From Desulfobacterales bacterium (GTDB lineage Bacteria; Desulfobacterota; Desulfobacteria; Desulfobacterales; UBA5616), in the NCBI GenBank assembly GCA_046483495.1, contig JAWODC010000090.1:1-64000 (forward strand): 64,000 nucleotides of DNA, in the 5' to 3' direction. The position numbers were made by a program, and so were the translations under genes. The notes under the pieces were generated by a model. It did no database searches and was not told where the DNA came from. It saw only the letters and a program-made list of their open reading frames with translations. Positions within the stretch are counted from its first letter, which is position 1. Every line of letters begins with the position of its first letter. This document shows positions 1,164 to 37,936 of this stretch, piece by piece.

Positions 1164-1328
1164 ATGCCCACATGCAAGGAATGCAAGTCCTTTTTCCCCA
1201 TCGAAGAGGAGCCCGGAAAGGGAGATTGTGTTCAAAAGTGCGTCGATGCCAGGCAAACCTATTATTCGGCCAGAGTTGTTTCTTCAGAAATGGATGCAAG
1301 CCTGTGCGATTCCTTTCAAAAAAAATAG
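1164..1328 (+). CDS. masC: (1-methylalkyl)succinate synthase gamma subunit (MasC/AssC, BssC-like), 54 aa; absent from the ORF track
   Basis: SD GGAGG at 1151. MPTCKECKSFFPIEEEPGKGDCVQKCVDARQTYYSARVVSSEMDASLCDSFQKK has the BssC/MasC CxxC...GDCV...C pattern and lies directly before assA. Confidence 0.92.
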   Translation: MPTCKECKSFFPIEEEPGKGDCVQKCVDARQTYYSARVVSSEMDASLCDSFQKK

Positions 1329-1373: not shown

Positions 1374-3872
1374 ATGGCAGAGCCAGCAATCGAAAAAGAA
1401 ATCAAGGGATATGAAGAAAAACAGCAATGGTGGTGGGCCGCGGAAAAAAGGCGCTCCAAACGGCTCGATTATCTGCGAAAAGCCGTCTGGCGAAAAGGGT
1501 CCACCGGCGGTGCGCCGATTTCACCCATCAAATTGGATCTGGAACCGGCTTACAGGCGCATCCAATTTTATAAACAATTCAAAAAAGAGCCCCAGCCGTT
1601 GCGAACGGCGAAAATTCTTGCCGCCATGTGGGAGAGCGACCAGATCTACATCGTCGATCATTCCCAGCTTGTCGGTTCAAAAACCCCGACACCGTCCACG
1701 GAAGCCTGGGAGGGCGCCGGCGGAACCGCCAATGCGGCCGTTTACAATTACCCGGAGATTCTTCCCGAACCGCTCGAGGAATCGTTGAAGAAGGTGCATG
1801 AAGTCGGCGAGTTCTGGGATACCGAAGGCGACGCCATGGACAAGCTGATCAGCATGGCCGACCCGGAAGATATCGCCAAGTTTCAATCCGGCGCCATTGC
1901 ATGGGGAAGCCTCATCGGGGGATACTCGGGCAAGAACTACGAGTACTTCATGACCGGCGAACGGGCCTTCGAAGACATCATCGCCGAAATCGAAAAGAAC
2001 ATCGAGGAAGCCGAGGATAAGATCCAGGGGGTTTCCAATCCCGACCTCCTTCCCCTGTACCAGAAAATCATCAACTGGGAGGCCATGATCATCGGCCTTC
2101 AAGCCGGCATTAAGCTGGCGAAGCGGTACGCACGGTTGGCCAGGATTATCGCTGAAAATTTCGAATCGGACCCCAAACGCAAGGAAGAGCTGCTTCGGGT
2201 TTCGGAGACCTGCGAACGGGTTCCGGCCAAACCGCCGAGAAATCTCCAGGAGTCCCTCCAGTACGACCACTTCATCCAGGTCATGGCACGGAAGGAGCAG
2301 GGCGAAGGCGCCTGGCCGGCCCGGCCGGATTACTACCATGGCCCCTATTACGACAGGGACGTCAATGTCGAGAAAAACATCACCAAAGAAGAGGCGATCG
2401 ACCTTATCGGCGAATTTCTGATCCGGGCGTATGACATGCCGGTCGTCCTGGCGATGGGCAAGTGGGTTCGCGAAGGTCTGCAGGGCATTGCCGGAACATG
2501 GGTCTGGACATTGGGAGGCGTGAATCAGCACGGCGACGATGCCTGCAACGAGATGACCATCGCCCTGATGCAGGCCGCCCGCCTCGTCCGGACACCGAAT
2601 CCCACGTTCGCCTTCCGGTGGCACCCGAAGGTGAAGGACGAAGTCATGCGGGAGATTTTCGAATGCATCCGCCACGGACTCGGATACCCGGCCATGCGCA
2701 ACGACCCGGTGCTGATCTCCAACGCCATGCACTGGCACCGGCACCCCATCGAGGAGGCCCGTACGTGGGTCCACCAGGCCTGCATGTCGCCCTGCCCCAC
2801 CACGAAGCACGGCACCCAGCCCATGCGCATGGCTTCGGCTACGGCAAACTGCGCCAAGATTATCGAATATGCGCTGTGGAACGGCTATGACCATGTGGTC
2901 AACATGCAGATGGGCCCCAAAACCGGAGACGCGCGCAACTTCATGGATTTCGAACAGCTCTTCGACGCCTGGGTCCAACAGATGGAGTGGCTGTTCAGCC
3001 TGCTGACCCGTACGGTGAACTTCGCGCGGTTCGTGCAGAGCGATGTGGCTCCGAGGCCTTTTCTTTCCGGCATTTCCCAGCGCGCCGTCGATTTGGGCGT
3101 CGATGTCATGCGGCCGGACGGCGAACGCGGCAACGCCTGGATCACGGCCTTTACCTGGGTGGAAAACGCGGACAGTCTTGCGGCCATCAAGAAGCTGGTG
3201 TTCGATGAAAAGAAATACACGATGAGCCAGCTCATGGACGCGCTCGAATCCAACTGGGACGGGTTCGAGGAGATGCGCCTGGACTTCGTCAACAGGGCAC
3301 CCAAATGGGGCAATGACGACGATTACGTGGATGAGGTCATGCTTCGCTGCCTGCGGGAATGCGCCCGGTTTTCACGGGAGCTGAAAGATCCCAGTGGAAA
3401 TTCATGGCCCATTCTGCCGGAGAACGTCAGCGGCAATATCCATTATTCAAGCATCGTCCGGGCACTGCCCAACGGCAGGCGACAGGGGGACGCCCTGTAC
3501 GACGGCGGCATATCACCGGGACCGGGTCTGGACAAGAAAGGCCCCACCTCGGTATTGAAGTCCTGCGGCAAAATCGATCATGTCACCGACGGCCGGGCGT
3601 TTTTGCTGAATCAGCGCCTTTCCCCGACCCAGCTCAAAGGGGAAAAGGGGTATCAGCTCTGGCGGGCCTACATGAAAACCTGGGCGGATCTCGGGCTGGA
3701 CCATGTTCAGTTCAACATGGTCTCCGATGAAACCCTTCGTGCGGCCCAGAAAGATCCTGAAAAATACTCGGAGGTTATCGTTCGGGTTGCCGGATACAGC
3801 GCTCATTTCGTGGACATCAGCCGGAAAACCCAGGACAATATCATTCAGAGAACGGTTCAGGGAATCGGATAG
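1374..3872 (+). CDS. assA: Alkylsuccinate / (1-methylalkyl)succinate synthase alpha subunit (glycyl radical enzyme, AssA/MasD), 832 aa
   Basis: SD GGGAGG before ATG 1374. Cys loop WVHQACMSPCP (Ass/Mas type rather than the BssA LCMSP), glycyl motif IVRVAGYSAHF, and N-terminal WWWAAEKRRSKRLDYLRKAVW. Confidence 0.95.
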   Translation: MAEPAIEKEIKGYEEKQQWWWAAEKRRSKRLDYLRKAVWRKGSTGGAPISPIKLDLEPAYRRIQFYKQFKKEPQPLRTAKILAAMWESDQIYIVDHSQLVGSKTPTPSTEAWEGAGGTANAAVYNYPEILPEPLEESLKKVHEVGEFWDTEGDAMDKLISMADPEDIAKFQSGAIAWGSLIGGYSGKNYEYFMTGERAFEDIIAEIEKNIEEAEDKIQGVSNPDLLPLYQKIINWEAMIIGLQAGIKLAKRYARLARIIAENFESDPKRKEELLRVSETCERVPAKPPRNLQESLQYDHFIQVMARKEQGEGAWPARPDYYHGPYYDRDVNVEKNITKEEAIDLIGEFLIRAYDMPVVLAMGKWVREGLQGIAGTWVWTLGGVNQHGDDACNEMTIALMQAARLVRTPNPTFAFRWHPKVKDEVMREIFECIRHGLGYPAMRNDPVLISNAMHWHRHPIEEARTWVHQACMSPCPTTKHGTQPMRMASATANCAKIIEYALWNGYDHVVNMQMGPKTGDARNFMDFEQLFDAWVQQMEWLFSLLTRTVNFARFVQSDVAPRPFLSGISQRAVDLGVDVMRPDGERGNAWITAFTWVENADSLAAIKKLVFDEKKYTMSQLMDALESNWDGFEEMRLDFVNRAPKWGNDDDYVDEVMLRCLRECARFSRELKDPSGNSWPILPENVSGNIHYSSIVRALPNGRRQGDALYDGGISPGPGLDKKGPTSVLKSCGKIDHVTDGRAFLLNQRLSPTQLKGEKGYQLWRAYMKTWADLGLDHVQFNMVSDETLRAAQKDPEKYSEVIVRVAGYSAHFVDISRKTQDNIIQRTVQGIG

Positions 3873-4075: not shown

Positions 4076-4303
4076 ATGAAATGCACCGAATGCGGACATG
4101 AGGCGTCTGTGGATAAGTTCAGGTACCTTTACAATGCCAGGATCGATGCATCCGTCAGCATGCGGCAATGTCCGAATTGCATGGAGGTTCTTGCCGTGAA
4201 CGAGCTGGACCACGAGGCCTTGAAAAAAGTGGGGCTTGGAGAAGCACCCTGGGGAAAATCCGCGGGAATCGAAGATCTGGCCGAAGACGTCAAGACGGCT
4301 TGA
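4076..4303 (+). CDS. masE: MasE small subunit (CxxC...CxxC, rubredoxin-like), 75 aa
   Basis: SD AAGGAG. MKCTECGHEA..KFRYLYNARIDAS..RQCPNC...PWGKSAGIEDLAED matches MasE as I recall it and follows masD as in mas operons. Confidence 0.9.
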   Translation: MKCTECGHEASVDKFRYLYNARIDASVSMRQCPNCMEVLAVNELDHEALKKVGLGEAPWGKSAGIEDLAEDVKTA

Positions 4304-4606: not shown

Positions 4607-6355
4607 ATGACAAAGCATGATGATGAAATTCGCGAGAAAGAAAAACAGTGGAAGGAAACCACCGTTCAAAACGCCCTGAAACGCTTTCCCATTCTGACGG
4701 AATCCCCAAGCCGTTTCTACACCCCGCTGGACGTGGACAAAAAGTTCAAATTTCTGAAAAAAGTGGGATTTCCCGGTGAATACCCCTTCACCGCCGGCAC
4801 CTATCCATTCGATCCCACCGCCGGGCTTTCCAAGTTTGCCGCCAAAATGCCGGCCGGGTCCGCCTACACGCGTGCCGCGCTGTACAGCGGCTACGGCGCT
4901 CCGGAGGACACACGGGATTACTACAAAAACCTGCTGGCCAAGGGCGGAAAGCAGGGGCCGAACCTGGCCATGGATCTTCCCACGCAGTGCGGGTACGACT
5001 CCGACAACCCCATGGTGGACGGAGAAGTCGGCAAGGTCGGCGTATCCATCGACACGTTAAGGGACCTCGAAGTCATTTATGAGCCGTATCAGGGGGATCT
5101 CAACCTTGACCGGATCGCCTCCAATTTCACCATCAACGCCCCGGCCGTCTACATTATGGCGATGTACGCGGCGCTCGCGGAAAAGCGGGGAATACCGCTG
5201 GACAAATTGCGTGCCACACCCCAGAACGACATATTGAAAGAATACGTCGCCCGGGGGACCTACATTTTTCCCCCGACGCCGGCCATGCGCCTCTTTCGGG
5301 ACACCCTGGTTTTTTTAACCAGGCACATGCCCAACGTCAACATCACCAGCATCGGCGGATACCACATCCGTGAAGCCGGCGCAAACCGGAAGCAGGACCT
5401 TGCCTACAGCATGGCCATTGCCATGGCCTATCTTCGGGAAGGCGTCAACACGGGTCTGAATGTCGACGATTTCGCTCCCCGCTTCACGTTCAACGCCTTC
5501 GGCGGCAGCATGGAATTTCTCCAGGAAATCGCGTTTCAACGGGCCGCAAGGCGCATGTACGCCTTTATACTCAAAGAGAAGTTCGGCGCAAAAAACCCCA
5601 AAAGCATGATTATCCGTCAGCCCATCACCGCCCATATCGGCCCGTCGGACACCACCATTCAACGGCCGCTGAATAATCTGACCCGGGCGGTTCTGGGTGC
5701 GGTGGCGGGTGCCCTGTCGGGCGGGTCCGGCGCCCCCTTTCCGCCCTATGATGAGCCCCTCGGGCTGGGCTGGAGCCTGGAGGCGCAGCAGTTGATGCAG
5801 GATGCAGGCCGGATTCTCACCTGTGAAGCGAGGCTTCTGGACGTGGAAGATCCGTTCGCCGGTTCCTACTGCATGGAGCACCTCACCGACAGCATCGAGC
5901 AGGAGGCATGGGAAGAACTCAATAAAGTCGAAGCCATGGGAGGCGCGGTGGCCGCCATCGAAAGCGGGTACCTGCAGAAACAGGTAGCCAAGAGCGCGTA
6001 CGAACACCAGAAAAAAGTGGCAAACGGCGACATTCTGAAAGTGGGCGTAAACTGCTTCACCGGAGAGCATGAGCTGGAAGTGGAAACCACCCGCCTGGTC
6101 CCGCACCCCTATGATCCGGGAAAACGGGAACGGGCTCAGGAGCACCAGATCGCATCCCTGAACGAGGTTCGACGATCACGGGACGGCCGGGAAGTCAAAC
6201 GGCTTCTTTCCGAACTCAGAGAAAAATCCCTACAGGAAGATGAAAACCTGACCTACCATCTGATCGACTGCGCCAAAGCCTACGTCACCATTCAGGAGGT
6301 ATGCGACACATTGCGGGATGTTTTTGGAGAATATGAATCCCCTTCGATCCTATAA
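4607..6355 (+). CDS. B12-dependent acyl-CoA mutase, large subunit (methylmalonyl-CoA mutase family)
   Basis: Motifs GFPGEYPFT, DLPTQCGYDSD, GEVGKVGV, QNDILKEY, GYHIREAG. SD GAGGGAG before ATG 4607. Confidence 0.93.
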   Translation: MTKHDDEIREKEKQWKETTVQNALKRFPILTESPSRFYTPLDVDKKFKFLKKVGFPGEYPFTAGTYPFDPTAGLSKFAAKMPAGSAYTRAALYSGYGAPEDTRDYYKNLLAKGGKQGPNLAMDLPTQCGYDSDNPMVDGEVGKVGVSIDTLRDLEVIYEPYQGDLNLDRIASNFTINAPAVYIMAMYAALAEKRGIPLDKLRATPQNDILKEYVARGTYIFPPTPAMRLFRDTLVFLTRHMPNVNITSIGGYHIREAGANRKQDLAYSMAIAMAYLREGVNTGLNVDDFAPRFTFNAFGGSMEFLQEIAFQRAARRMYAFILKEKFGAKNPKSMIIRQPITAHIGPSDTTIQRPLNNLTRAVLGAVAGALSGGSGAPFPPYDEPLGLGWSLEAQQLMQDAGRILTCEARLLDVEDPFAGSYCMEHLTDSIEQEAWEELNKVEAMGGAVAAIESGYLQKQVAKSAYEHQKKVANGDILKVGVNCFTGEHELEVETTRLVPHPYDPGKRERAQEHQIASLNEVRRSRDGREVKRLLSELREKSLQEDENLTYHLIDCAKAYVTIQEVCDTLRDVFGEYESPSIL

Positions 6356-6488
6356 GGGCCGGTCAACGGAACCGGGCCGCCACCATGAAAGCCGCATTTC
6401 CCGACCGCAGGCGTCCTCGTTCGGACCGGATCATTTTCGGTATCCGATCCGCCGGCCTGCGGAAGCGGGCCTGGCTCATCCCGACGAC

Positions 6489-8198
6489 ATGATTGCGTCC
6501 CATTTTCGGGAACTGCTGGACCTCTTGATCCCGATGTCGGGCAACCGCCGCGTCATGATCGACGGGTACGGCCTGTTAAAAGACCCCGGGACAATTCACC
6601 CGATCCTGCCGGACCGGGAGAATTCGGCACCGGAGCCCCTGGACCTGTATGAACCCCGGATCGGTTATATCCGCCGTGCGCTGGAATCCATCCTGGGGCT
6701 CGTCGAACTCGAGTCCGGCGGCAGGCCCGTGCGAGTGGACGGCTTTCGCCTGAAGGACCCCGCGGCCTGGCTGGGTCCGTCCGGAGGGGCATCGGACATC
6801 CTGGCCCACGCAGCATCCCGATGCAATGTAAACTGCCGGTTCTGTTACAACAGGGGCACGTCCCCCGCACTGAAACCGAAAAAACGGGACAGCGATGAGG
6901 AATACCGGGAAATTCGGCGGCGTATCGAGCATTATGTTCCGGAGGGCCGGCTGGCTGTCTTTCCGGATATGGCAAGCCCCTGTGAAATGCTGGCGCATCC
7001 CTGCATTTCGGAAATACTTTTTCAGTTGCGGGAAAAAACACCGGAGCTTTTTCGAATCGCCACCAACGGCGCCGCACTGACGGAGGAAATGCTCGACATT
7101 CTTTCCGCCGTCAAACCGGTGCGCCTGGACATTTCCCTCAATTCCGCCTCCCCCGGCAGACGAAAATGGCTGATGCGCGACAAAAAACCCGAGACCGCCC
7201 TCGGTGCGCCGAAACGGCTTGAGCAGCGCGGGATCCCCTACTCCCTGGTGATCGTGCCCTGGCCCTTTCCCTCGCCGGAGGTCATGCTCGCCGATCTGAC
7301 CAAAACACTTGAATGGGCCGATAACCACCGGCCGATGTTCATTCAGATCAGCCTGCCCGGGTATACGCGGCATTCGCTTCCTTATGCGCACCATTTTGAC
7401 GAATCCGTCTGGCGAAAAGTAAAGCGCCGCGTTCAGGACATGCGCCACCATATGACATGTCCGGTGGTGCTGCGGCCGGGGCTTTATGAAGAATATGACG
7501 ATCCGGAGCATGTCGATCATGCCGCGCTCGTCGGCGTAATCGCCGGTTCCCCCCTGGATAAGGCGGGGGTTTGCCGGGGTGATCGAATATCCGGAATAAA
7601 CGGCATACGGGTAAAAAACCGCCGGCAGGCAAGGTCTTTATTGACGATGCTGCATCAAGGCGACCTCGGAAAAACCCATTTGCACGTCCTTCGAAACGCC
7701 GAAGAAGTGCATATCCCCGTGGATCTTCACGCATGGGCTTATCCCTATGCGCCGGCGGCGGCCACCCACCTGGGAGCGGTATTTTCCTCGAGCGGCATAC
7801 CGTCATCCTGGATGGATCACCTGCTGCAGGTAATCGAACGACGTTTTGCAAAGACCATACTGCTGCTGACATCCCGGCTCGTTCGGCCCTCGATTGTAAC
7901 CATGATTGCCAAAAGCCCCGGGTTAGCGGGTGTTCACTTCCACCTGTGGGTCCCGGAAAACCGTTACTTCGGAGGCAATATTTTCATGGGGGATTTGATC
8001 ACGGCGGAAGACGTCATCGTTTCGGTGCGGCATTTTATCGCCTCTGAAAAAGTAACCCCCGAGCTTGTAGTGCTTCCCGCTTCCCCGTTTCACATGAGCG
8101 GGTGGGGCCGTGACCTGACCGGGCGGGTGTACCTGGATATCGAACGGCATCTGGGTATTCCTGTTGAATTGATACCATGCGATCCGCTATTTGACTGA
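6489..8198 (+). CDS. Radical SAM protein with PDZ-like segment and C-terminal DUF512-like domain
   Basis: CNVNCRFC (CX3CX2C), PDZ-like VIAGSPLDKAGVCRGDRISGING, and DUF512-like NRYFGGNIFMGDLITAED...GRDLTG. Start uncertain (6489 chosen; the frame is open from 6318). Confidence 0.8.
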   Translation: MIASHFRELLDLLIPMSGNRRVMIDGYGLLKDPGTIHPILPDRENSAPEPLDLYEPRIGYIRRALESILGLVELESGGRPVRVDGFRLKDPAAWLGPSGGASDILAHAASRCNVNCRFCYNRGTSPALKPKKRDSDEEYREIRRRIEHYVPEGRLAVFPDMASPCEMLAHPCISEILFQLREKTPELFRIATNGAALTEEMLDILSAVKPVRLDISLNSASPGRRKWLMRDKKPETALGAPKRLEQRGIPYSLVIVPWPFPSPEVMLADLTKTLEWADNHRPMFIQISLPGYTRHSLPYAHHFDESVWRKVKRRVQDMRHHMTCPVVLRPGLYEEYDDPEHVDHAALVGVIAGSPLDKAGVCRGDRISGINGIRVKNRRQARSLLTMLHQGDLGKTHLHVLRNAEEVHIPVDLHAWAYPYAPAAATHLGAVFSSSGIPSSWMDHLLQVIERRFAKTILLLTSRLVRPSIVTMIAKSPGLAGVHFHLWVPENRYFGGNIFMGDLITAEDVIVSVRHFIASEKVTPELVVLPASPFHMSGWGRDLTGRVYLDIERHLGIPVELIPCDPLFD

Positions 8199-18200: not shown

Positions 18201-19172
18201 ATGGAAGATCAGGTATTGGTCACCGACATTCAAAAATTTGCCGTAAACGACGGGCCCGGTTTTCGAACCAACGTGTTCTTAAAAGGCTGCCCGATGTCAT
18301 GCCATTGGTGCCATAACCCGGAAACCATCGCACCCTATCCCGAAATATACTGGAAAAGCAGGCTCTGTCACCAGTGCGGGGCATGCCTCGAGGCCTGCCC
18401 CAACGAGGCGATTTATCCCCCTATTCCCCTTGACCAAACCCAGGATGAAAACGTCTCGTACCACAAAATAAACAGAAGCCGCTGTGACCGCTGTTTCAAA
18501 TGCGTGGAGGCATGCCCCTACGGCGCCCTGTCGATTGTCGGAAAACCGATGAGCATCGAAGAGATTCTCACAGAGGTGGAAAAAGACCGGATGTTTTACG
18601 AAAACTCCGGGGGCGGGATGACCCTGAGCGGGGGGGAACCCACTTCCCACCCGGCTTTCTCGAAAGAACTTTTGATTGCGGCAAAAAAAAGCGGGATTCA
18701 CACGTGTCTCGACACGAACGGGTTCTGTGCACAAGCGGTTCTGGAAAACCTGCTCCCCTATGTCGATATCGTTTTGTTCGACATCAAGCACATCGATGCC
18801 GCCAAGCACGAGAACGCCACCGGCGTGAGCAACGATATCGTTTTAGCGAACTTATCCATGCTCCTTACGACAGGGAAAGAAGTATGGGTTCGCATACCCG
18901 TCATTCCGGGATTCAACAACACGATGGACTTTCATGAAGCGGCATCGGACTACCTGTATCATCTCAAGGGGAATATCGCCAGAGTGGACCTGCTTCCGTA
19001 TCACAATTACTGCCAGGACAAGTATGCATGGCTGGGAATCGACTGGGTGTTGAAGGAGGCGGAAGCCATCGAGCCGTCGTTTCTGGAGATTCCGGCGGAT
19101 GTATATCGGCAGAAAGGATTTTATACCACGATTGGAGGCTCCGGCTTCGAGAATGTGTCCTCATTCGGCTAA
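18201..19172 (+). CDS. assD: Glycyl-radical enzyme activating enzyme (AssD/MasG)
   Basis: DGPGFRTNVFLKGCPMSCHWCHNPE, two ferredoxin motifs (CHQCGACLEACP, CDRCFKCVEACP), and GGMTLSGGEP. Confidence 0.93.
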   Translation: MEDQVLVTDIQKFAVNDGPGFRTNVFLKGCPMSCHWCHNPETIAPYPEIYWKSRLCHQCGACLEACPNEAIYPPIPLDQTQDENVSYHKINRSRCDRCFKCVEACPYGALSIVGKPMSIEEILTEVEKDRMFYENSGGGMTLSGGEPTSHPAFSKELLIAAKKSGIHTCLDTNGFCAQAVLENLLPYVDIVLFDIKHIDAAKHENATGVSNDIVLANLSMLLTTGKEVWVRIPVIPGFNNTMDFHEAASDYLYHLKGNIARVDLLPYHNYCQDKYAWLGIDWVLKEAEAIEPSFLEIPADVYRQKGFYTTIGGSGFENVSSFG

Positions 19173-19233: not shown

Positions 19234-19608
19234 ATGTCCAGAAGAGATAAATGGCGTCAAGTGAGGGACAGTATCACCATGTCCAAGGGAGAAATGGGCA
19301 AAACGCTCGAAGAGCGGGAAAACATGCCGGCCAAGGCATGCGGCTACTGCAAGAACTTCTTCGAAAATGCGTATAACGCAGACGGCCGCGGTTCCTGCAA
19401 GATCCTTAAAATGGGGTCCGACCTGAAAGCAGACCCGCCGGTATTCGTGTTGGAGGGCGACACAGGCCTGATCTGTTACATCAACACCAATGCAGAGAAC
19501 TGCCCTTATTATGATCGAATGGAGCTCATCGACACGGATCTCGGCGAAATTACAGACCCGGCATACCGGCGCAGCCACCGAATTATGGAAAAGCGAAATG
19601 GGAGATAA
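19234..19608 (+). CDS. masB: (1-methylalkyl)succinate synthase beta-type subunit (MasB/AssB)
   Basis: MSRRDKW...ACGYCKNFFENAYNADGRGSCKILK.GSD...CP.Y.RMELIDTD...DP..RR matches MasB as I recall it. SD GGGAGG. Confidence 0.88.
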   Translation: MSRRDKWRQVRDSITMSKGEMGKTLEERENMPAKACGYCKNFFENAYNADGRGSCKILKMGSDLKADPPVFVLEGDTGLICYINTNAENCPYYDRMELIDTDLGEITDPAYRRSHRIMEKRNGR

Positions 19609-19687
19609 GTACTTGCCGGGTTTTTGATAATTCGCCTTATGAGCTGTGAACTTTCAGCCTCGAGTGTCTTTAAACGAAGAGGAGCTT

Positions 19688-20026
19688 ATGGATCTAACAT
19701 GCCACAAGTGCGGCTTTACGGCCGACCACGTCGAGTTCCGGTATCTGTGCAAATCCGGTTGACCGGCTTGCGGAGAGGCCGATCTCCGCGTGTGCCCCGG
19801 TTGCGGCACAGAATTGCTGTTTTCAAGAGCTGAAGCCTTGGAAAATGAAGATGAACAGATGAAAGAACTCTCGAAACGGCTTGCCGTGATACAAAAAGAA
19901 GACGATCCGGTACGGTTGCGGGAAGCAAAAGCGATTATCACCAAACTGCAGCAGATGAATATCCGGTGGAACATTCCTCAATTGGATGATTTCCTGAAGC
20001 AGCGGCAAAAAGACCTCTTTTTCTGA
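19688..20026 (+). CDS. Putative selenoprotein: MasE-like metal-binding domain with CxxxUxxC insert plus helical C-terminus, 112 aa
   Basis: SD AGAGGAG before ATG 19688. Reads MDLTCHKCGFTADHVEFRYLCKSG-(TGA 19760-62)-PACGEADLRVCPGCG... in frame with track ORF 19790..20026. Similarity to MasE lies on both sides of the TGA. Confidence 0.8.
19761..19802 (+). promoter_or_regulatory. Candidate bacterial SECIS hairpin
   Basis: Perfect 7-bp stem GCGGAGA(19770-76)/TCTCCGC(19783-89) with G-starting loop GGCCGA, plus lower stem GACCGG(19761-66)/CCGGTT(19797-802). Confidence 0.65.
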
Positions 20027-20082: not shown

Positions 20083-20931
20083 ATGAGCAATTTTGAAGCG
20101 AGCCTCTCCATCCCGAAGCCCGAGGAGCATTTTTTTCTTCCCGAACATGTCATCGACAACCTGGAGCGGATAAAACGGCTGGCCGAACGGCATCCCGTCA
20201 ATGTTCTCGTCACGGGGAAGCAGGGCTGCGGAAAATCCACCATGGTCAGGCAGTTTGCAGCCCGAAACAACAGGCCAATGGCTGTCTTTCAGATCGGCAT
20301 TTTGTCCGAACCCGGGCAGCTTTTCGGCGAGTATCAATTAAGGGACGGCAAAACCGTTTACCGCAAGTTTCTATTCCCCCAGGCGATTCAGACCCCGGGA
20401 TGCGTCATTCACCTGGAAGAAATCAACAGGCCTGAAAATCCAAAGGCGCTGAACATGCTGTTTTCGGTCCTTTCGGAAGATCGTCGGGTGTGGATGGATG
20501 AACTCGGCCTGATCGAGGTCGCCGATGAAGTGACATTTTTCGCCACCCTGAACGAAGGGGAAGAATTCGTGGGTACGGAAATGCTGGACGCCGCCCTGCG
20601 GGACCGGTTTTACGTGACCATGCTGGATTACCTTCCGGCTGATATCGAAACCAGGGTGCTTCATCTGAAAACCGGCATCGAAGAGGCGGAAGCATTGACC
20701 ATCGTCAATATAGCAAACAAACTTCGAAACAACACGCAGGAACCGATTGTCGTCTCCACCCGTCATACCTTGATGATCGCCGAACTCGCTGCGGTCGGCG
20801 CTTCCACGAAAGACGCGTTTATCAACAGCCTGCAGCTCAGCCGGGATATCATTGAATCCGTTCTTTTGTCCCTGCATTCCGAACTGGGCATGACCGGCGC
20901 GGGGGGGCGGAATGCATACCGTATATACTGA
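20083..20931 (+). CDS. MoxR/CbbQ/NirQ-type AAA+ ATPase (AssE/BssE-like)
   Basis: Walker A GKQGCGKST, Walker B IHLEEINR, LDAALRDRF, VSTR. Confidence 0.88.
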   Translation: MSNFEASLSIPKPEEHFFLPEHVIDNLERIKRLAERHPVNVLVTGKQGCGKSTMVRQFAARNNRPMAVFQIGILSEPGQLFGEYQLRDGKTVYRKFLFPQAIQTPGCVIHLEEINRPENPKALNMLFSVLSEDRRVWMDELGLIEVADEVTFFATLNEGEEFVGTEMLDAALRDRFYVTMLDYLPADIETRVLHLKTGIEEAEALTIVNIANKLRNNTQEPIVVSTRHTLMIAELAAVGASTKDAFINSLQLSRDIIESVLLSLHSELGMTGAGGRNAYRIY

Positions 20932-20955: not shown

Positions 20956-22638
20956 ATGACTACCGGCATCTCAGAATTCTGGCGGAAAAACACTTCTCCG
21001 ATCGAAGCCGTCGAACTGGCCAACGTGCTTCGGGCGCTTCGAAAGGTCTCCGGGTACCTGGGTGAAAACATCGGCACCATCGAATATGCCGGCATGTCCC
21101 GGCGGCAGGGGTCCGGTATTGTTTTGGACCCGGAGCTCGCCATGGGGCAATACCCGTTGCCGTTCAGTCAAATGGATTACCTGGTCGGGTTGGTGACCCA
21201 TGAAGCCCTTCATAGGGTCGAGTGGAGCGATCATGTGTGGAAGATATTGGAACCCGTATTTCAAGAGATGGGGCCGATGGCCATGGTACGTTTTCAGAAG
21301 ATCGTTCATTTCGGCGAAGATATTTATGTGGATATCGTGGCCGACAAGAAAATCTTTGGACGCTATGTGCGAAAACTCCGCGATCGCATCATAACGGAAA
21401 TCGCCTCGGCCGTGCCGTCCGGCAAAGCATCGCTCGATGAACTGGTTTATATCTGGTGGGCGGAATACCATACACGCGCTTCCGAAGACCCCCCGATTCG
21501 CGATGAATACAAAAGGTCCATCACCATACTGAATCATCTCACCGAGGAATTGATCTCGGTGAGCCGCCTCGAAAAAGGTGCCACCGCACGTTGTGAAAAA
21601 CGCGCCGAACTGTATGCCGATGCATTCCGGCAAATCGAACATACGGGCACCCCCCTCTATGTCCATGACAAGAAGCTGTACTGGTACCCCTCAGCCGCAT
21701 CTCCTTTCGCCTGTGAATCCGCCGGACGTAAGAAGGGAGAAAAACCGGCACCTTCGATCCCGAAGGATGTTTTGAACGAAATCGAGCTTCAGCTTGCCGG
21801 GTCTTCCATTGACATGACACCGATTATTCAGTCCATTGTCGGTTACGACAACGAAGACGTCATCCCAACCTCCCGTTGGGATTTTACCGTCAGCGCGCAC
21901 CCGATGATCGACCGCAGGATCGTCTCACGCCTGAAAGCCGCCTTCCGGCAATATGCCGGCCGGAATAAAATCATCAGCCGCGGACTTCCCAGCGGAAAGA
22001 TCGATCGTCGCCGGCTGTACCGCGCGGCAACCACCGGGCGCTGCTTTCAGCAGCATGACGATTTTCCCAACCTCGACTGGAATGTCACGCTGCTGATGGA
22101 TGCCAGCGGTTCGATGCGGGGAAACAAGTGGCGCATGGTTGAAAACACCGTTGCCAATATTCACAAGGCCTTGACCGGTTTTCACAACCATCTGCAAGCC
22201 CTGGCCTATTTTGAAAAAGACGGCATCCTGATGATCTCCCAGCTGATCCGGAACAATCGCATCCAATCGGTGCCTCCCAGCGGCCTGACTGCATCGGGCC
22301 AGGCCATTATCGCCGCGGCCTGGCTCATGCCGAAAAGAAGAAAGCGCAACATTCTCATTCACGTAACGGACGGAGAATCCAACCTGGGATGCGACGTGCA
22401 ATACGGCATCGACTATTGCCGCAAGGCGCATATCGACCTGATCACACTGGGATGCGGCTACAAGGACCGGGACGCCATGATCCGCCAGTATGGAAAGTCC
22501 ATCCAGTTTCTGGATCACTTCGGCCAACTGGCCCGGGCCATGGAGCGGCTGCTCAAATGGACGTTTATTTACGGAAAAAGACCGAACCTGAATGAAAAAG
22601 GAGAGATGGCGTTTTTAACGCAACGATCCACCGGTTGA
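20956..22638 (+). CDS. VWA-domain partner of the AAA+ ATPase (AssF/BssF-like)
   Basis: MIDAS motif MDASGSM, IHVTDG, SGKIDRRRLYR, and N-terminal HEALH (HExxH). Confidence 0.85.
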   Translation: MTTGISEFWRKNTSPIEAVELANVLRALRKVSGYLGENIGTIEYAGMSRRQGSGIVLDPELAMGQYPLPFSQMDYLVGLVTHEALHRVEWSDHVWKILEPVFQEMGPMAMVRFQKIVHFGEDIYVDIVADKKIFGRYVRKLRDRIITEIASAVPSGKASLDELVYIWWAEYHTRASEDPPIRDEYKRSITILNHLTEELISVSRLEKGATARCEKRAELYADAFRQIEHTGTPLYVHDKKLYWYPSAASPFACESAGRKKGEKPAPSIPKDVLNEIELQLAGSSIDMTPIIQSIVGYDNEDVIPTSRWDFTVSAHPMIDRRIVSRLKAAFRQYAGRNKIISRGLPSGKIDRRRLYRAATTGRCFQQHDDFPNLDWNVTLLMDASGSMRGNKWRMVENTVANIHKALTGFHNHLQALAYFEKDGILMISQLIRNNRIQSVPPSGLTASGQAIIAAAWLMPKRRKRNILIHVTDGESNLGCDVQYGIDYCRKAHIDLITLGCGYKDRDAMIRQYGKSIQFLDHFGQLARAMERLLKWTFIYGKRPNLNEKGEMAFLTQRSTG

Positions 22639-22738: not shown

Positions 22739-23011
22739 ATGCCGGTTACGATTTACATTCCGGGATCATTGTCCGACTGGCTGGGCGGAAAGGATGAAGC
22801 CGTGTGTTCCGGCGGCACCATCAAAGAGTGTCTTGCCCATGTCGACAAGGTGCATGCCGGATTTTTAAATCGCATCTCAGACGGCTCCGGGAATCCGGCC
22901 GGCGTAATCGTTTTTCTCAACGGAGAAAATATCAACAATCTCCTTGGATTCGAGACGCCGGTGAAAAACGGTGATCAAATCGGCATCATTCCGCTGGCAG
23001 CGGGAGGGTAA
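22739..23011 (+). CDS. MoaD/ThiS family ubiquitin-like sulfur carrier
   Basis: IVFLNGENI...VKNGDQIGIIPLAAGG with C-terminal GG. Confidence 0.9.
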   Translation: MPVTIYIPGSLSDWLGGKDEAVCSGGTIKECLAHVDKVHAGFLNRISDGSGNPAGVIVFLNGENINNLLGFETPVKNGDQIGIIPLAAGG

Positions 23012-23013
23012 GC

Positions 23014-23535
23014 ATGATTATCGATGACCCGAATTCCCATTTCATATTTGTCTACCATCCGTTCGTGCTCATGGGAAAACGATACACCACCCACCGGGGA
23101 AAGGAATTGACAAACGCTGAAGTCCTGAAATACTGGGGCAAGTGGATTATTCTCGGAAAAAAAGAACAGCTGGACGACCTGGCAACGAAGCTTGATCCCT
23201 ATGTCGAGGAGAAAAAAATACCCTGCATCAAGTATGACCGGAATCCGTCCGCCAATCTCGGCGTAAATGAATGCGTTTTCATGGTGTACTGTGACCGGCG
23301 CGATCGTGACAATGTCTGGCAGATTCTTTCCCGATTCGGCATAAAGATGAAAGCATGGGTAACCGAAAAAGAAACCATGGAGCTGTGGATGCCTGGAAGC
23401 CCCCTGCTGGAACGGTGGATGGAATCCAAAGGATTCGACGAGACGTCAAAGGCGCTGATTCGAAAGGATGCCAAGGAACGGCTGTCGCGAATCTTCGACA
23501 ACCCGGATGCCGTATTCACCGGCTGGGAGCAGTGA
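23014..23535 (+). CDS. Hypothetical protein, last gene of the ass/mas operon
   Basis: 173-aa ORF 2 bp after moaD with globular, Trp-rich composition (YWGKWII, CIKYDR, MVYCD). No family recognised. Confidence 0.8.
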   Translation: MIIDDPNSHFIFVYHPFVLMGKRYTTHRGKELTNAEVLKYWGKWIILGKKEQLDDLATKLDPYVEEKKIPCIKYDRNPSANLGVNECVFMVYCDRRDRDNVWQILSRFGIKMKAWVTEKETMELWMPGSPLLERWMESKGFDETSKALIRKDAKERLSRIFDNPDAVFTGWEQ

Positions 23536-35225: not shown

Positions 35226-36965
35226 TTATTTTGGGATAGCTTGTAGTATGCGTTGCCGCAGCAAATGTTCGAGCCCATCGGAAAGGTGATGAATGCTTTT
35301 TAAAAAATAGAGGTGTCCGGGAGGAAAAAATTCCCTCAAAAAGTCCCGTGTCTGGCGGTTGCATCCACATCCGAGTGTCACCACGTCGATGGCGTGGCTT
35401 CGACAGTACCCAAGGGCTTCCCCAAGGCTCAAACCGCAATTGGCCGCACCATCCGTAATATGAATGATCAACCGGTTTTTTCCGCTCTTCTTCCGCAGCA
35501 TCGCTGCAGCCATTATGGCCTGTCCCGAGGGTGTCCGTCCCGAAGGCGTGACGGAATAAACGGTTTTGCCGTGATACAGCCGCGTCAACAGGCAGACATG
35601 CCGTTCCGCGTGATAGGCGTATATATCAAAAACATTCCCGTATCCCCGTGCGGCGGCTGCGAGGGATACAAAACTCTTTTCAGCGATTTCCCACGGCCTT
35701 CGCGACCGGCTGCCGGTGCGGCCCGGTTCCTCTTTGCCGCTCATGGATGCCGATGCATCCGCAACGATGCATATGTGCCGGTACTTGTCTTCTCCCGGTC
35801 CCTGCCTCTTTTTGAACACCTTGCCGTCAAGGGGCACCCGGTAAAGCCGCGCCGGGTCCAGTTTGCCCTCTTTCAGGCCTCGCCTGACGTGCCGAATGCG
35901 CGCCCGGCGGATCATCGAATCCTGCTTTTTAAAGATTTTTCTCAATCGTCGGACCTGAACGGCGTCAGGTGAAATGCTTGAAACCACTTCGCCTTTTACG
36001 AGCCGGGTTTCCATGGGGCGGGCTCCGGGTTCATCCACAGCAACGGCCGTGCTGTGCAATTTCAGCGGCTCTTCCTGAAGGTATGCATTCACCTCCTCGG
36101 CCAGTCCCTGACGAAGCCCCTGTGCAAATTCCGTCTCCTCACGGCCGTTCGAATCCTCATTTTCAGCGTCATCTTCCCCGATATCCACATTTTTTTCAGG
36201 ACCCGCTTCATCATACATATTCACCGCATCCGGGTTCAATGCAAACCGGCGCCATTGGGATACAACCGGTTCAACCTCATGCCACATCATTCGGTAAATG
36301 CCTGTTCTTTCTTTTCTTCTGGCGCTCATGGCATCGTGTGCCGCCACTGCCCGAATGCGTGCCCTATACGGCGCTAAAACGGCAAAAAGCTCCGTGTAAT
36401 AAAAATGAAGATGGTCCGGAATACGGCCGGTGAACCCGTAACCCTGCCAGACGGCGAACGCGCTTTCCGCAGTCGGGGGCAGGGCCGGATCTCTTGTGTT
36501 TTCCGAAAAGGCGCGGCGAAAAAACCGCGATAAATACAAGTGCCAAATGCTGTCTTTTACCAACTCATAAATGTAAATATTTTCCGAAGCGGTAACCAGG
36601 TTGTCGAGGTAAGGCATGGTATGCTCATCGAGGTTTTTAAACGGTGCCGCGGTATGTTTCCTCACCCATTCATGAAATTCCATGGCCAGAAACCCCTCAC
36701 GCACGACCTGGCCGACAAGCTGGTCGTACGTGTCGTGTGGGATCGGGTATTCCCCTTCTGTTTTTTCCGGATCCAGCAAAATAAAACGGCCGTCATCTGC
36801 AGTCATTCCTTTCCAGTATACGGGTTTGACGGCTTTTCCGATATGACCGGCCACCTTTCGCACGGCCCTTAAGGCAAGGGCCAATTCAGCGGTTTCATTG
36901 GAAGAGCGGTTGATGCGCCAATACTTGGAATAGCTCGTGGGCGTGATCGCCGGCGGTAAATTCAT
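35226..36965 (-). CDS. Second VWA-domain protein (paralog of 20956..22638)
   Basis: YWRINRS..E..ELA.ALRA.RKV.GH.G, GKLDPARLYR, DASASM, PSGRTPSGQAI, IHITDG. Confidence 0.85.
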   Translation of the reverse strand: MNLPPAITPTSYSKYWRINRSSNETAELALALRAVRKVAGHIGKAVKPVYWKGMTADDGRFILLDPEKTEGEYPIPHDTYDQLVGQVVREGFLAMEFHEWVRKHTAAPFKNLDEHTMPYLDNLVTASENIYIYELVKDSIWHLYLSRFFRRAFSENTRDPALPPTAESAFAVWQGYGFTGRIPDHLHFYYTELFAVLAPYRARIRAVAAHDAMSARRKERTGIYRMMWHEVEPVVSQWRRFALNPDAVNMYDEAGPEKNVDIGEDDAENEDSNGREETEFAQGLRQGLAEEVNAYLQEEPLKLHSTAVAVDEPGARPMETRLVKGEVVSSISPDAVQVRRLRKIFKKQDSMIRRARIRHVRRGLKEGKLDPARLYRVPLDGKVFKKRQGPGEDKYRHICIVADASASMSGKEEPGRTGSRSRRPWEIAEKSFVSLAAAARGYGNVFDIYAYHAERHVCLLTRLYHGKTVYSVTPSGRTPSGQAIMAAAMLRKKSGKNRLIIHITDGAANCGLSLGEALGYCRSHAIDVVTLGCGCNRQTRDFLREFFPPGHLYFLKSIHHLSDGLEHLLRQRILQAIPK

Positions 36966-37822
36966 GATGCCGTGTCCGGCAGGTACAGGCAGTAGGATGC
37001 CTCTTCTGCTTGTGTTTCACCGGTTTCCACCTGAATGGAGAGCAAAAGCGATTCCAGTGTGTCAACGGAAATTTGCAGGCTGTAAATCAGGGCTTCACGA
37101 AGCGATGCGCCCATGGCGACCAACTCGGCCATCATAAGGCTATGCCGGATGGAGACCCGCATTTCGATCTGGTCGTTGTTGCGAATACGGTTGACTATTT
37201 TCAAAATCCGATCCGCCGCGGCCGCATCGATTCGGGTTTTTCGGATGAGCACTTCCTTTTCTATGGGTTGGGGCAAATATTCGAGGTGAACCCTGTAAAA
37301 CCGGTCCTTCAAGGCCTCATCCAAATCGTCCGTGCCGCTGAATGTCTCCCCTTCATTCATGGTTGCAAAAAACATCACCCCCGGTGCGACCTTGATCAAG
37401 CCCAGTTCGTCGATCCATATACTTCGGTCCTCGGATAATACGCTGAACAGTTCGTTCAGCGCATGCGGGCTTTCGGTCCGATTGATCTCCTCCAGATGAA
37501 TGACGCAACCCGGCGTCTGAATGGCCTTTGGAAAAAGAAATTCCTGAAAGTACGTTTCTCCGGATCTGAGCCGCTGCTGCCCGAAAAGCTGCCCCGCCTC
37601 GAGAAGCAGTCCAATCTGAAAGGTCGCCATGGGCCTGGTGCAGATATGGGCGAATTGCCTGACCAGAGAAGATTTTCCGCAGCCCTGGTTTCCCGTTATC
37701 AGAATATTCACCGGATGCGTTTCAGACATCCGGTGAAATCGTGCGAGATTCTCTTTGTCCGCTTTCAGAATAAAAAAGTGGGGATCGGGATCGGGTACTT
37801 TCAACTGACCGGATAAATCCAT
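36962..37822 (-). CDS. Second AAA+ ATPase (paralog of 20083..20931)
   Basis: HPVNILITGNQGCGKSS, FPKAIQTPGCVIHLEEINR, LDEALKDRF. SD AGAAAGGA. Confidence 0.88.
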   Translation of the reverse strand: MDLSGQLKVPDPDPHFFILKADKENLARFHRMSETHPVNILITGNQGCGKSSLVRQFAHICTRPMATFQIGLLLEAGQLFGQQRLRSGETYFQEFLFPKAIQTPGCVIHLEEINRTESPHALNELFSVLSEDRSIWIDELGLIKVAPGVMFFATMNEGETFSGTDDLDEALKDRFYRVHLEYLPQPIEKEVLIRKTRIDAAAADRILKIVNRIRNNDQIEMRVSIRHSLMMAELVAMGASLREALIYSLQISVDTLESLLLSIQVETGETQAEEASYCLYLPDTAS

Positions 37823-37936
37823 TATCGGGTATCCTTTCTGAAATGGATCATATCGGTGAAAAGTATACTGCAAGAGGTGAAAAAAGGCAAATAACATTTA
37901 AAAATGGTGGATACGGCCGGCATTCAGCCGAAGCAT

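Follow-up and report, generated by a model that had tools for sequence, protein, structure and literature searches.

The locus examined here lies within a window of 64,000 nucleotides (the whole stretch of DNA that was analysed, contig JAWODC010000090.1 of the Desulfobacterales assembly GCA_046483495.1), and the genes and features that concern us are listed below by position in the window.

1164..1328, plus strand: putative masC-like gamma subunit, assigned from its Cys pattern and position
1374..3872, plus strand: masD/assA, catalytic alpha subunit (PDB 9o8u_A, 1261 bits)
4076..4303, plus strand: masE, delta subunit and paralog of the candidate (PDB 9o8u_D, E 7.4e-28)
18201..19172, plus strand: masG/assD, glycyl-radical activating enzyme (TIGR02494, 339 bits, above cut-off)
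19234..19608, plus strand: masB, beta subunit (PDB 9o8u_B, E 7.8e-30)
19678..19684, plus strand: Shine-Dalgarno-like AGAGGAG, 3 nt 5' of ATG 19688 (a short spacing)
19688..20026, plus strand: candidate selenoprotein gene, 112 aa if UGA25 is read as Sec
19700..19711, plus strand: predicted first metal knuckle Cys5-x2-Cys8, invariant in 88 aligned sequences and matching MasE Cys3/Cys6
19748..19777, plus strand: predicted beta-hairpin tip, residues 21-30, with Cys21, Sec25 and Cys28 (model strands 18-23 and 31-35)
19760..19762, plus strand: in-frame TGA, putative Sec codon 25, in a TGA/Cys column across 77 distinct loci
19769..19790, plus strand: hairpin H1, SECIS candidate, 8 bp with a G-starting 6-nt loop 14 nt past the UGA
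19791..19810, plus strand: hairpin H2, second SECIS candidate, loop ~36-37 nt past the UGA, stronger in homologs
19793..19804, plus strand: predicted second metal knuckle Cys36-x2-Cys39, Cys36 invariant and Cys39 at least 90% conserved
19826..20014, plus strand: three-helix C-terminal domain of the model, residues 47-109, which MasE lacks
20083..20931, plus strand: AAA+ ATPase, AssE/BssE-like (Pfam AAA_5 and CbbQ_C)
20956..22638, plus strand: vWA protein, AssF/BssF-like (Pfam VWA)

Judged by these family and structure matches, the neighbourhood is a true alkylsuccinate synthase cluster, in which the name AssE/BssE-like rests on gene position and on the excerpted text of PMC7285207. The candidate stands with masG, masB and the AAA+ and vWA genes, and masCDE lie 14 kb upstream. 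The preliminary description had placed the gene between masB and the AAA+ gene of an alkane-activation operon, and both statements are borne out, the first by masB at 19234-19608 upstream and the AAA_5/CbbQ_C ATPase downstream, the second by co-occurrence with masE and by the mas and AAA+ neighbours of its homologs. The candidate and masE are found in the same 15 of the 401 genomes of our phylum sample (one weak unrelated match left out, and related genomes not being independent). A mas gene lies at most 1 kb upstream in 65 of the 67 informative loci (masE being nearest in 52 and masB in 9), an AAA+ gene follows next downstream in 61/67, and neither is adjacent in 3 of 77 loci (L033, L068 and L073). 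Outside the phylum, MasE-like matches occur in 3/301 genomes around a Bacillota MAG.

The reading frame is as previously described: AGAGGAG and ATG 19688 open a frame that meets TGA at 19760-62 and continues to its final stop, a TGA at 20024-26, and purine-rich tracts also precede the start codon in most of the homologs displayed. Whether reads support the TGA at 19760 is answered in part, since a public contig covering 19094-20054 agrees with zero differences, TGA included, but the run behind it may be the source sample itself. Contigs from RNA libraries, drawn from three runs in two studies, overlap the gene in part, although contigs cannot show transcription. The source genome is 96.7% complete and by tblastn holds a single copy each of masB, masC, masE and the candidate. 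Among named genomes the closest homolog locus (L004, 83%) is labelled Desulfobacteraceae. A protein search returned 48 relatives, 15 full-length and 33 N-truncated (62-78 aa), and the truncation of 33/48 is what gene callers that end a frame at the TGA would produce. No Pfam family scored above cut-off for the candidate protein, a plasmid search gave zero matches, no longer or fused homolog was found among 7999 candidates (weak evidence), and the best ESM Atlas hit (score 0.88) is an unnamed protein that serves as a lead only.

To describe the column of the internal TGA, we gathered homologous DNA loci from named genomes (23 loci), from metagenomes (49) and from the 401-genome phylum sample. 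Of 89 matches, 88 reach column 25, with TGA in 47, TGC in 26, TGT in 14 and one misaligned row. Left out were L075 (short of column 25), L095 (the misaligned row, with its TGA two codons on), 10 duplicates, and G044/L091, a weak and unrelated 30-residue match. The resulting 77 distinct loci have TGA in 44 (window included) and Cys, as TGC or TGT, in 33, with nothing else at this position, so that the TGA/Cys pairs sought at position 25 are indeed present. Full-length database proteins have Cys there in 15/15 cases, and same-family relatives carrying the gene have TGA in 4/4, one of which also has a late TAA.

Among the 41 complete Sec forms, pN/pS is 0.18 over codons 2-24 and 0.21 over codons 42-110, values which indicate that the protein is under purifying selection on both flanks of the TGA. 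The conserved Trp94 is encoded by TGG in 41/41 Sec forms; together with the low pN/pS on both sides, this means that the TGA is neither a product of decay nor a Trp codon. A tree computed from the alignment without column 25 (74 rows, with few columns and many open forks) shows at least five Sec/Cys switches, and Cys forms are nested inside a Sec clade. The candidate is very probably a selenoprotein, a statement of comparative genomics and not of chemistry. The earlier reading of the TGA as Sec is upheld by the TGA/Cys column, by the two-sided purifying selection and by hairpins selected in the Sec forms, to which we return below. In a divergent member at 38% identity (L101:2323-2643 minus, G242:C161), the TGA is displaced by two codons in the 3' direction and a clear hairpin is missing.

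The machinery for Sec insertion, whose presence in the genome had been left to be checked, is complete in the source genome, with selA, selB, selC (tRNA-Sec) and selD all found and selD itself containing a TGA. Further in-frame TGAs occur there in three vhuD/mvhD-like genes, one fdhA and three hdrA-like genes. In the 13 other TGA-form genomes tested, selA or selB scores above cut-off in 13/13 (selA in 12/13 and selB in 12/13). The 20 Cys-form genomes tested have selA above cut-off in 15 and selB in 19. Since Cys-form genomes mostly hold selA and selB too, a test at the genome level does not discriminate between the two forms, and we reject loss of the Sec machinery as the origin of the Cys forms. 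With selB in at least 19 of 20 of these genomes, it appears that Sec has often been given up where it was available.

The preliminary description had also reported a GC-rich hairpin with a G-starting loop after the TGA, and had cautioned that its loop begins slightly closer to the UGA than is typical. The hairpin, H1, is present, and the caution is warranted. The consensus SECIS model has a G-starting loop of 3-9 nt located 16-37 nt from the UGA (PMC13188914, excerpts), against which the H1 loop at 14 nt falls outside and the H2 loop lies at 36-37 nt; the other genes with in-frame TGAs here show a G-bearing loop at 18-24 nt in 6/8 minimum-energy folds. Taken alone, H1 in the window is borderline, with z between -1.5 and -1.8, 8-17 of 200 shuffles folding equally well, and 2.4% of 3000 synonymous recodings doing so, and H1 and H2 of the window taken jointly fold no better than synonymous recodings (27%).

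The hairpins become much clearer when the whole family is considered. H1 beats its synonymous null (z below -1.65) in 23/44 Sec forms vs. 2/33 Cys forms, and H2, an additional selected hairpin absent from the preliminary description, does so in 24/44 vs. 1/33, which bears out the expected conservation of hairpins in TGA forms. Synonymous divergence over the hairpins is halved in Sec forms (0.28 vs. 0.55-0.58) and not in Cys forms (0.50 vs. 0.53-0.65). As drawn by hand, the two helices pair in 85.5% of cells, with 42 cells changed on both sides (figures that relatedness inflates); 0/500 shuffles equal this, and slid controls pair in 29-57%. The outer pair of H1 has changed from G-C to C-G where Cys28 has become Thr. 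RNAalifold returns a weak consensus (-1.76 kcal/mol, 7 pairs), a tree-aware test of hairpin against Sec has three independent pairs and hence no power, and in one clade of about ten Sec forms both hairpins are weakened. Sequence comparison thus indicates that a selected RNA element is present past the UGA, with H1 or H2 as the candidate SECIS.

The encoded protein resembles MasE in its N-terminal part and departs from it in the rest. A structural model built from the 88-sequence alignment (pLDDT 86) has strands at residues 2-4, 11-13, 18-23, 31-35 and 42-46 and helices at 47-67, 74-94 and 97-109; it replaces an earlier 34-row model with N-terminal pLDDT of ~50, for which a fold search caught only the helices. 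The preliminary description had aligned the protein with MasE at 4076 on both sides of the TGA, a relationship that is weak by tblastn (E 0.055) but real by profile comparison (hhalign 95.8%, E 6.8e-9, 40 columns). The best match of the candidate profile among PDB sequences is likewise MasE (9o8u chain D, E 0.027). What the two share is the four-Cys, rubredoxin-like N-terminal domain of MasE, also called MASS-delta. The conserved tip loop of MasE is absent and a Sec/Cys tip stands in its place, as had been noted. A three-helix domain, which the preliminary description lacks, takes the place of the ~20-residue tail by which MasE binds the glycyl radical domain, and it returned generic helical-bundle matches only (VIA) in fold searches on both models. 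Because this tail is replaced by three helices, we regard the candidate as a paralog of MasE rather than as a MasE, and masE itself is present as well, in the same operon and the same genomes.

The loop that carries the putative Sec was described earlier as C-x3-U-x2-C, with the spacing of the radical-SAM CX3CX2C motif. This is true of the present sequence and of 31/33 Cys forms, which keep C-x3-C-x2-C, and untrue of the Sec forms at large, as the spacing is broken in 19/44 and both Cys21 and Cys28 are kept in only 25/44. In the remaining Sec forms the loop Cys are found at 21 and 24 (10 loci), at 30 only (4), at 21 only (3), at 28 only (1) and at 21 and 30 (1), so that 8/44 have one other loop Cys only. 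Cys28 is replaced by Thr, Ser or Ala in 18/44 and Cys21 is lost in 5/44, and all 44 keep a Cys at 21, 24, 28 or 30. Distant homologs with the same two domains have a loop with CC or without Cys. The presence in every Sec form of a nearby Cys at a shifting position is easier to reconcile with a Se-S redox pair than with a cluster held by three fixed ligands, while the conservation of C-x3-C-x2-C in the Cys forms keeps a metal-binding role alive. Despite the shared spacing, the candidate at 112 aa differs from radical SAM enzymes in having no radical SAM domain (no NCBIfam or Pfam match).

Taken together, these observations suggest a mechanism in which SelB and tRNA(Sec) would read UGA25 through the downstream stem-loop, the four Cys of the rubredoxin domain would bind one Fe or Zn (by analogy with MasE), and the tip of the beta-hairpin would present Sec beside at least one Cys. 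The Sec and its nearby Cys may then cycle between selenol/thiol and a Se-S bond, with the three-helix domain probably serving for docking. The protein would serve as a redox accessory dedicated to the activation and maintenance machinery of alkylsuccinate synthase (the activase and the AAA+/vWA pair), keeping an oxidation-prone site reduced. That site could be the iron centre of MasE, the cluster of the activase, or the catalytic Cys, which is exposed when the glycyl radical domain opens. Orthologs with Cys alone would do the same job, in which case selenium is a boost and not a requirement. We give this mechanism, a Sec/Cys redox accessory of the activase/AAA+ module, an even chance of being right as a whole. 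The protein may have the role in radical installation, protection or repair that the preliminary description had proposed.

Recurring UxxC, UxxT and CU motifs in the selenoprotein catalogue (PMC13188914 Table 1) count in favor of the mechanism, and the redox selenoproteins that bear them resemble the candidate in having an in-frame UGA, Cys homologs, a stem-loop and a Cys near Sec, although the candidate lacks a thioredoxin fold. The genomic layout also suggests a closer link with the module for activation and maintenance than with the core enzyme, since extra copies of masD and masE often occur without the candidate (L015, L102, L104 and L106) and at L105 the candidate follows two activase genes on a contig without any synthase subunit. 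The HxN1 cluster is described as seven genes, masA-G, none of which is presented as such a protein in the excerpted text of PMC12358834, and the same source cites alkylsuccinate formation in E. coli; the candidate may therefore be dispensable in some systems.

A different reading, which we consider rather unlikely, is that the candidate is an exchangeable delta-like subunit that docks on MasD/MasB at the site of MasE but has no tail with which to clamp the glycyl radical domain, its Sec tip donating a hydrogen atom so as to quench the radical reversibly or protect it. The Se-H bond is weak, which would suit such a donor. The MasE fold also speaks for this reading (Foldseek, the one fold search to list MasE, gave probability 0.92 and rmsd 1.8 over 47 columns, but with E 1.4 and rank 31), as does the layout at L099, L100 and L101, where the candidate lies directly after masC with no masE between and so occupies the place of masE. 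The iron of MasE faces away from the alpha subunit (PMC12358834, excerpts), and the opposite tip of the hairpin may consequently face alpha. Against this, the candidate has other sequence in place of both the tip loop and the C-terminal tail of MasE, and its copy number tracks the AAA+ and activase genes more than the copies of masD.

Nor does it seem likely that, in line with the Fe-S alternative of the preliminary description, Cys21, Sec25 and Cys28 hold labile iron or a [4Fe-4S] cluster, the protein being a metal or Fe-S carrier that, with the AAA+ and vWA proteins, delivers to MasE, MasB, MasC or the activase. The C-x3-C-x2-C pattern of the Cys forms and the 25 Sec forms with both Cys would provide the ligands, and the neighbouring gene encodes a CbbQ/NorQ-type ATPase with a vWA partner, a class in which NorQ/NorD insert iron. 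But 19 Sec forms break the spacing, the eight with one other loop Cys have too few residues for three ligands, and the distant homologs without loop Cys and the missing radical-SAM domain also argue against this role.

We consider it quite improbable that the protein is a non-redox adaptor, with the helical domain connecting the synthase to the AAA+/vWA remodeller and with the Sec/Cys loop acting only as a switch sensitive to redox state or as a gate by which selenium controls translation of the genes downstream. The family has a conserved R-W-N and a hydrophobic C-terminus, the AAA+ gene is downstream in most loci, and P0050, P0052, P0079, P0095 and P0097 have both domains and a loop without Cys, all of which would suit an adaptor; in the core family, however, column 25 is always Sec or Cys, and toluene-type bss clusters have BssE/BssF with such a protein unmentioned in the excerpted text of PMC7285207. 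That the TGA is a true stop, whether as a nonsense mutation, in a split gene restarting at GTG 19790 or as a Trp code, is scarcely credible: the N-truncated database relatives, the atypical spacing of H1 and a purine tract within H1 ~11 nt before GTG 19790 would be in keeping with it, but several clades share the TGA at a single column and have counterparts with Cys there, codons 2-24 are under purifying selection, GTG is found at codon 35 in only 4/44 TGA forms and a restart product would lose half of the metal site, so that the restart is rejected, as is the Trp reading from the TGG of Trp94.

We next ask how the redox accessory relates to proteins already described. The candidate is absent from a catalogue of 119 selenoprotein families (PMC13188914 Table 1, compared by names and motifs), in which no family name refers to a glycyl radical enzyme ("glycyl", "alkane" and "rubredoxin" have 0 occurrences). 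The zinc ribbon (seleno)protein DG and the dual-CXXC DW/OS_HP3 resemble it as small zinc-ribbon-type selenoproteins of Desulfobacterota (PMC12013277, excerpts), yet the DG, DW and DF sequences given there (194, 54 and 92 aa) are by eye different proteins with other motifs, and the DG model NF049953 reaches only 25 of the 130 bits that its cut-off requires, matching from the second knuckle onward. The genes assABCDE, masE and assF are listed in PMC7180275 with the candidate gene not among them; ass loci occur with and without assD/assE (PMC13685792, excerpts, in which "seleno" has 0 occurrences); the function of BssE/F is uncertain (PMC7285207, excerpts); and the excerpted text of PMC13326102 does not mention the candidate. 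The literature covered, to which subscription papers are mostly external, gave no report of a selenoprotein in fumarate-addition operons or tied to alkylsuccinate synthase. We conclude that the alkane-activation operon includes a genuine and conserved selenoprotein family that derives from MasE and has apparently not been published.

In sulfate-reducing and methanogenic communities, the anaerobic degradation of alkanes begins with alkylsuccinate synthase. The MasE subunit has a rubredoxin-like fold with one Fe, a puzzling role, and a tail that grips the glycyl radical domain; among the accessory subunits it is reported to be the most sensitive to oxygen, and it has to move before the activase can bind. 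The 2025 structure paper leaves open the reason for its rubredoxin fold and the route of activase access (PMC12358834, excerpts). A paralog of this subunit, conserved in 15/15 masE-bearing genomes of the sample and truncated in its Sec form by annotation, is a concrete candidate for a missing component in the in vitro activation of the synthase. It would also connect selenium supply with anaerobic hydrocarbon degradation in a way open to testing and add a non-thioredoxin family to the bacterial selenoproteome. A bolder and doubtful extension is that alkylsuccinate synthases of Desulfobacterota, and of some Bacillota and Chloroflexota, have a fifth component that has been overlooked, namely this protein, made through a tandem-hairpin SECIS of unusual geometry. 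Its selenol would then act on the radical machinery itself, either as a reductant of the activase cluster or in the reversible quenching or the repair of the glycyl/thiyl radical site. If true, one step in the activation of a glycyl radical enzyme would be based on selenium.

Several related genes were encountered in the course of the analysis. A stand-alone MasE-like ORF of ~66 aa without the helical domain (L111:7500-7690 minus, G322:C8), a 30% identical relative of the candidate, carries a TGA in frame at the corresponding loop tip, and H1 and H2 both recur there with compensating base pairs; the 14 kb covered at this locus include no mas genes. It may be a second selenoprotein, though its database relative P0087 has Trp-Cys there and a nonsense change is possible. 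A third MasE-like paralog without loop Cys lies directly upstream of tandem activating-enzyme genes at four loci (L015:837, L047:249, L105:1314 and L110:4946). MasE-like proteins with a Cys-Cys loop occur in genomes of the Bacillota sample (L113:1143-1352 and L114:1444-1662), one between two activase-like genes and the other beside a MoaD-like gene and a conserved uncharacterized gene. At L067-L069:6001-6351 a TGA-form gene is located among housekeeping genes (adenylate kinase, helicase-like and aminotransferase-like) with no mas gene within 12 kb. At L109 (G150:C132), L057 and L059, masG, masB, masE, the candidate and the AAA+ gene are clustered with no masD between.

Elsewhere in the source genome there is a second masD copy, 84% identical (G000:C25:3622-6114), with C-terminal masD fragments on C25 and C48. 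In the window, a radical-SAM-like protein with a PDZ-like region (6318-8198), which matches no family above cut-off, is encoded between the two mutase subunit genes of the alkane cluster, and a second AAA+/vWA pair (35226-37897, minus strand) is 59% and 27% identical to the first, with no nearby synthase gene. Following the vWA gene, at 22739-23535, are genes for a small MoaD/Urm1-like protein and for a protein of 173 aa that belongs to no known family, a pair that recurs near the mas loci L004, L023, L059, L101, L107 and L109.
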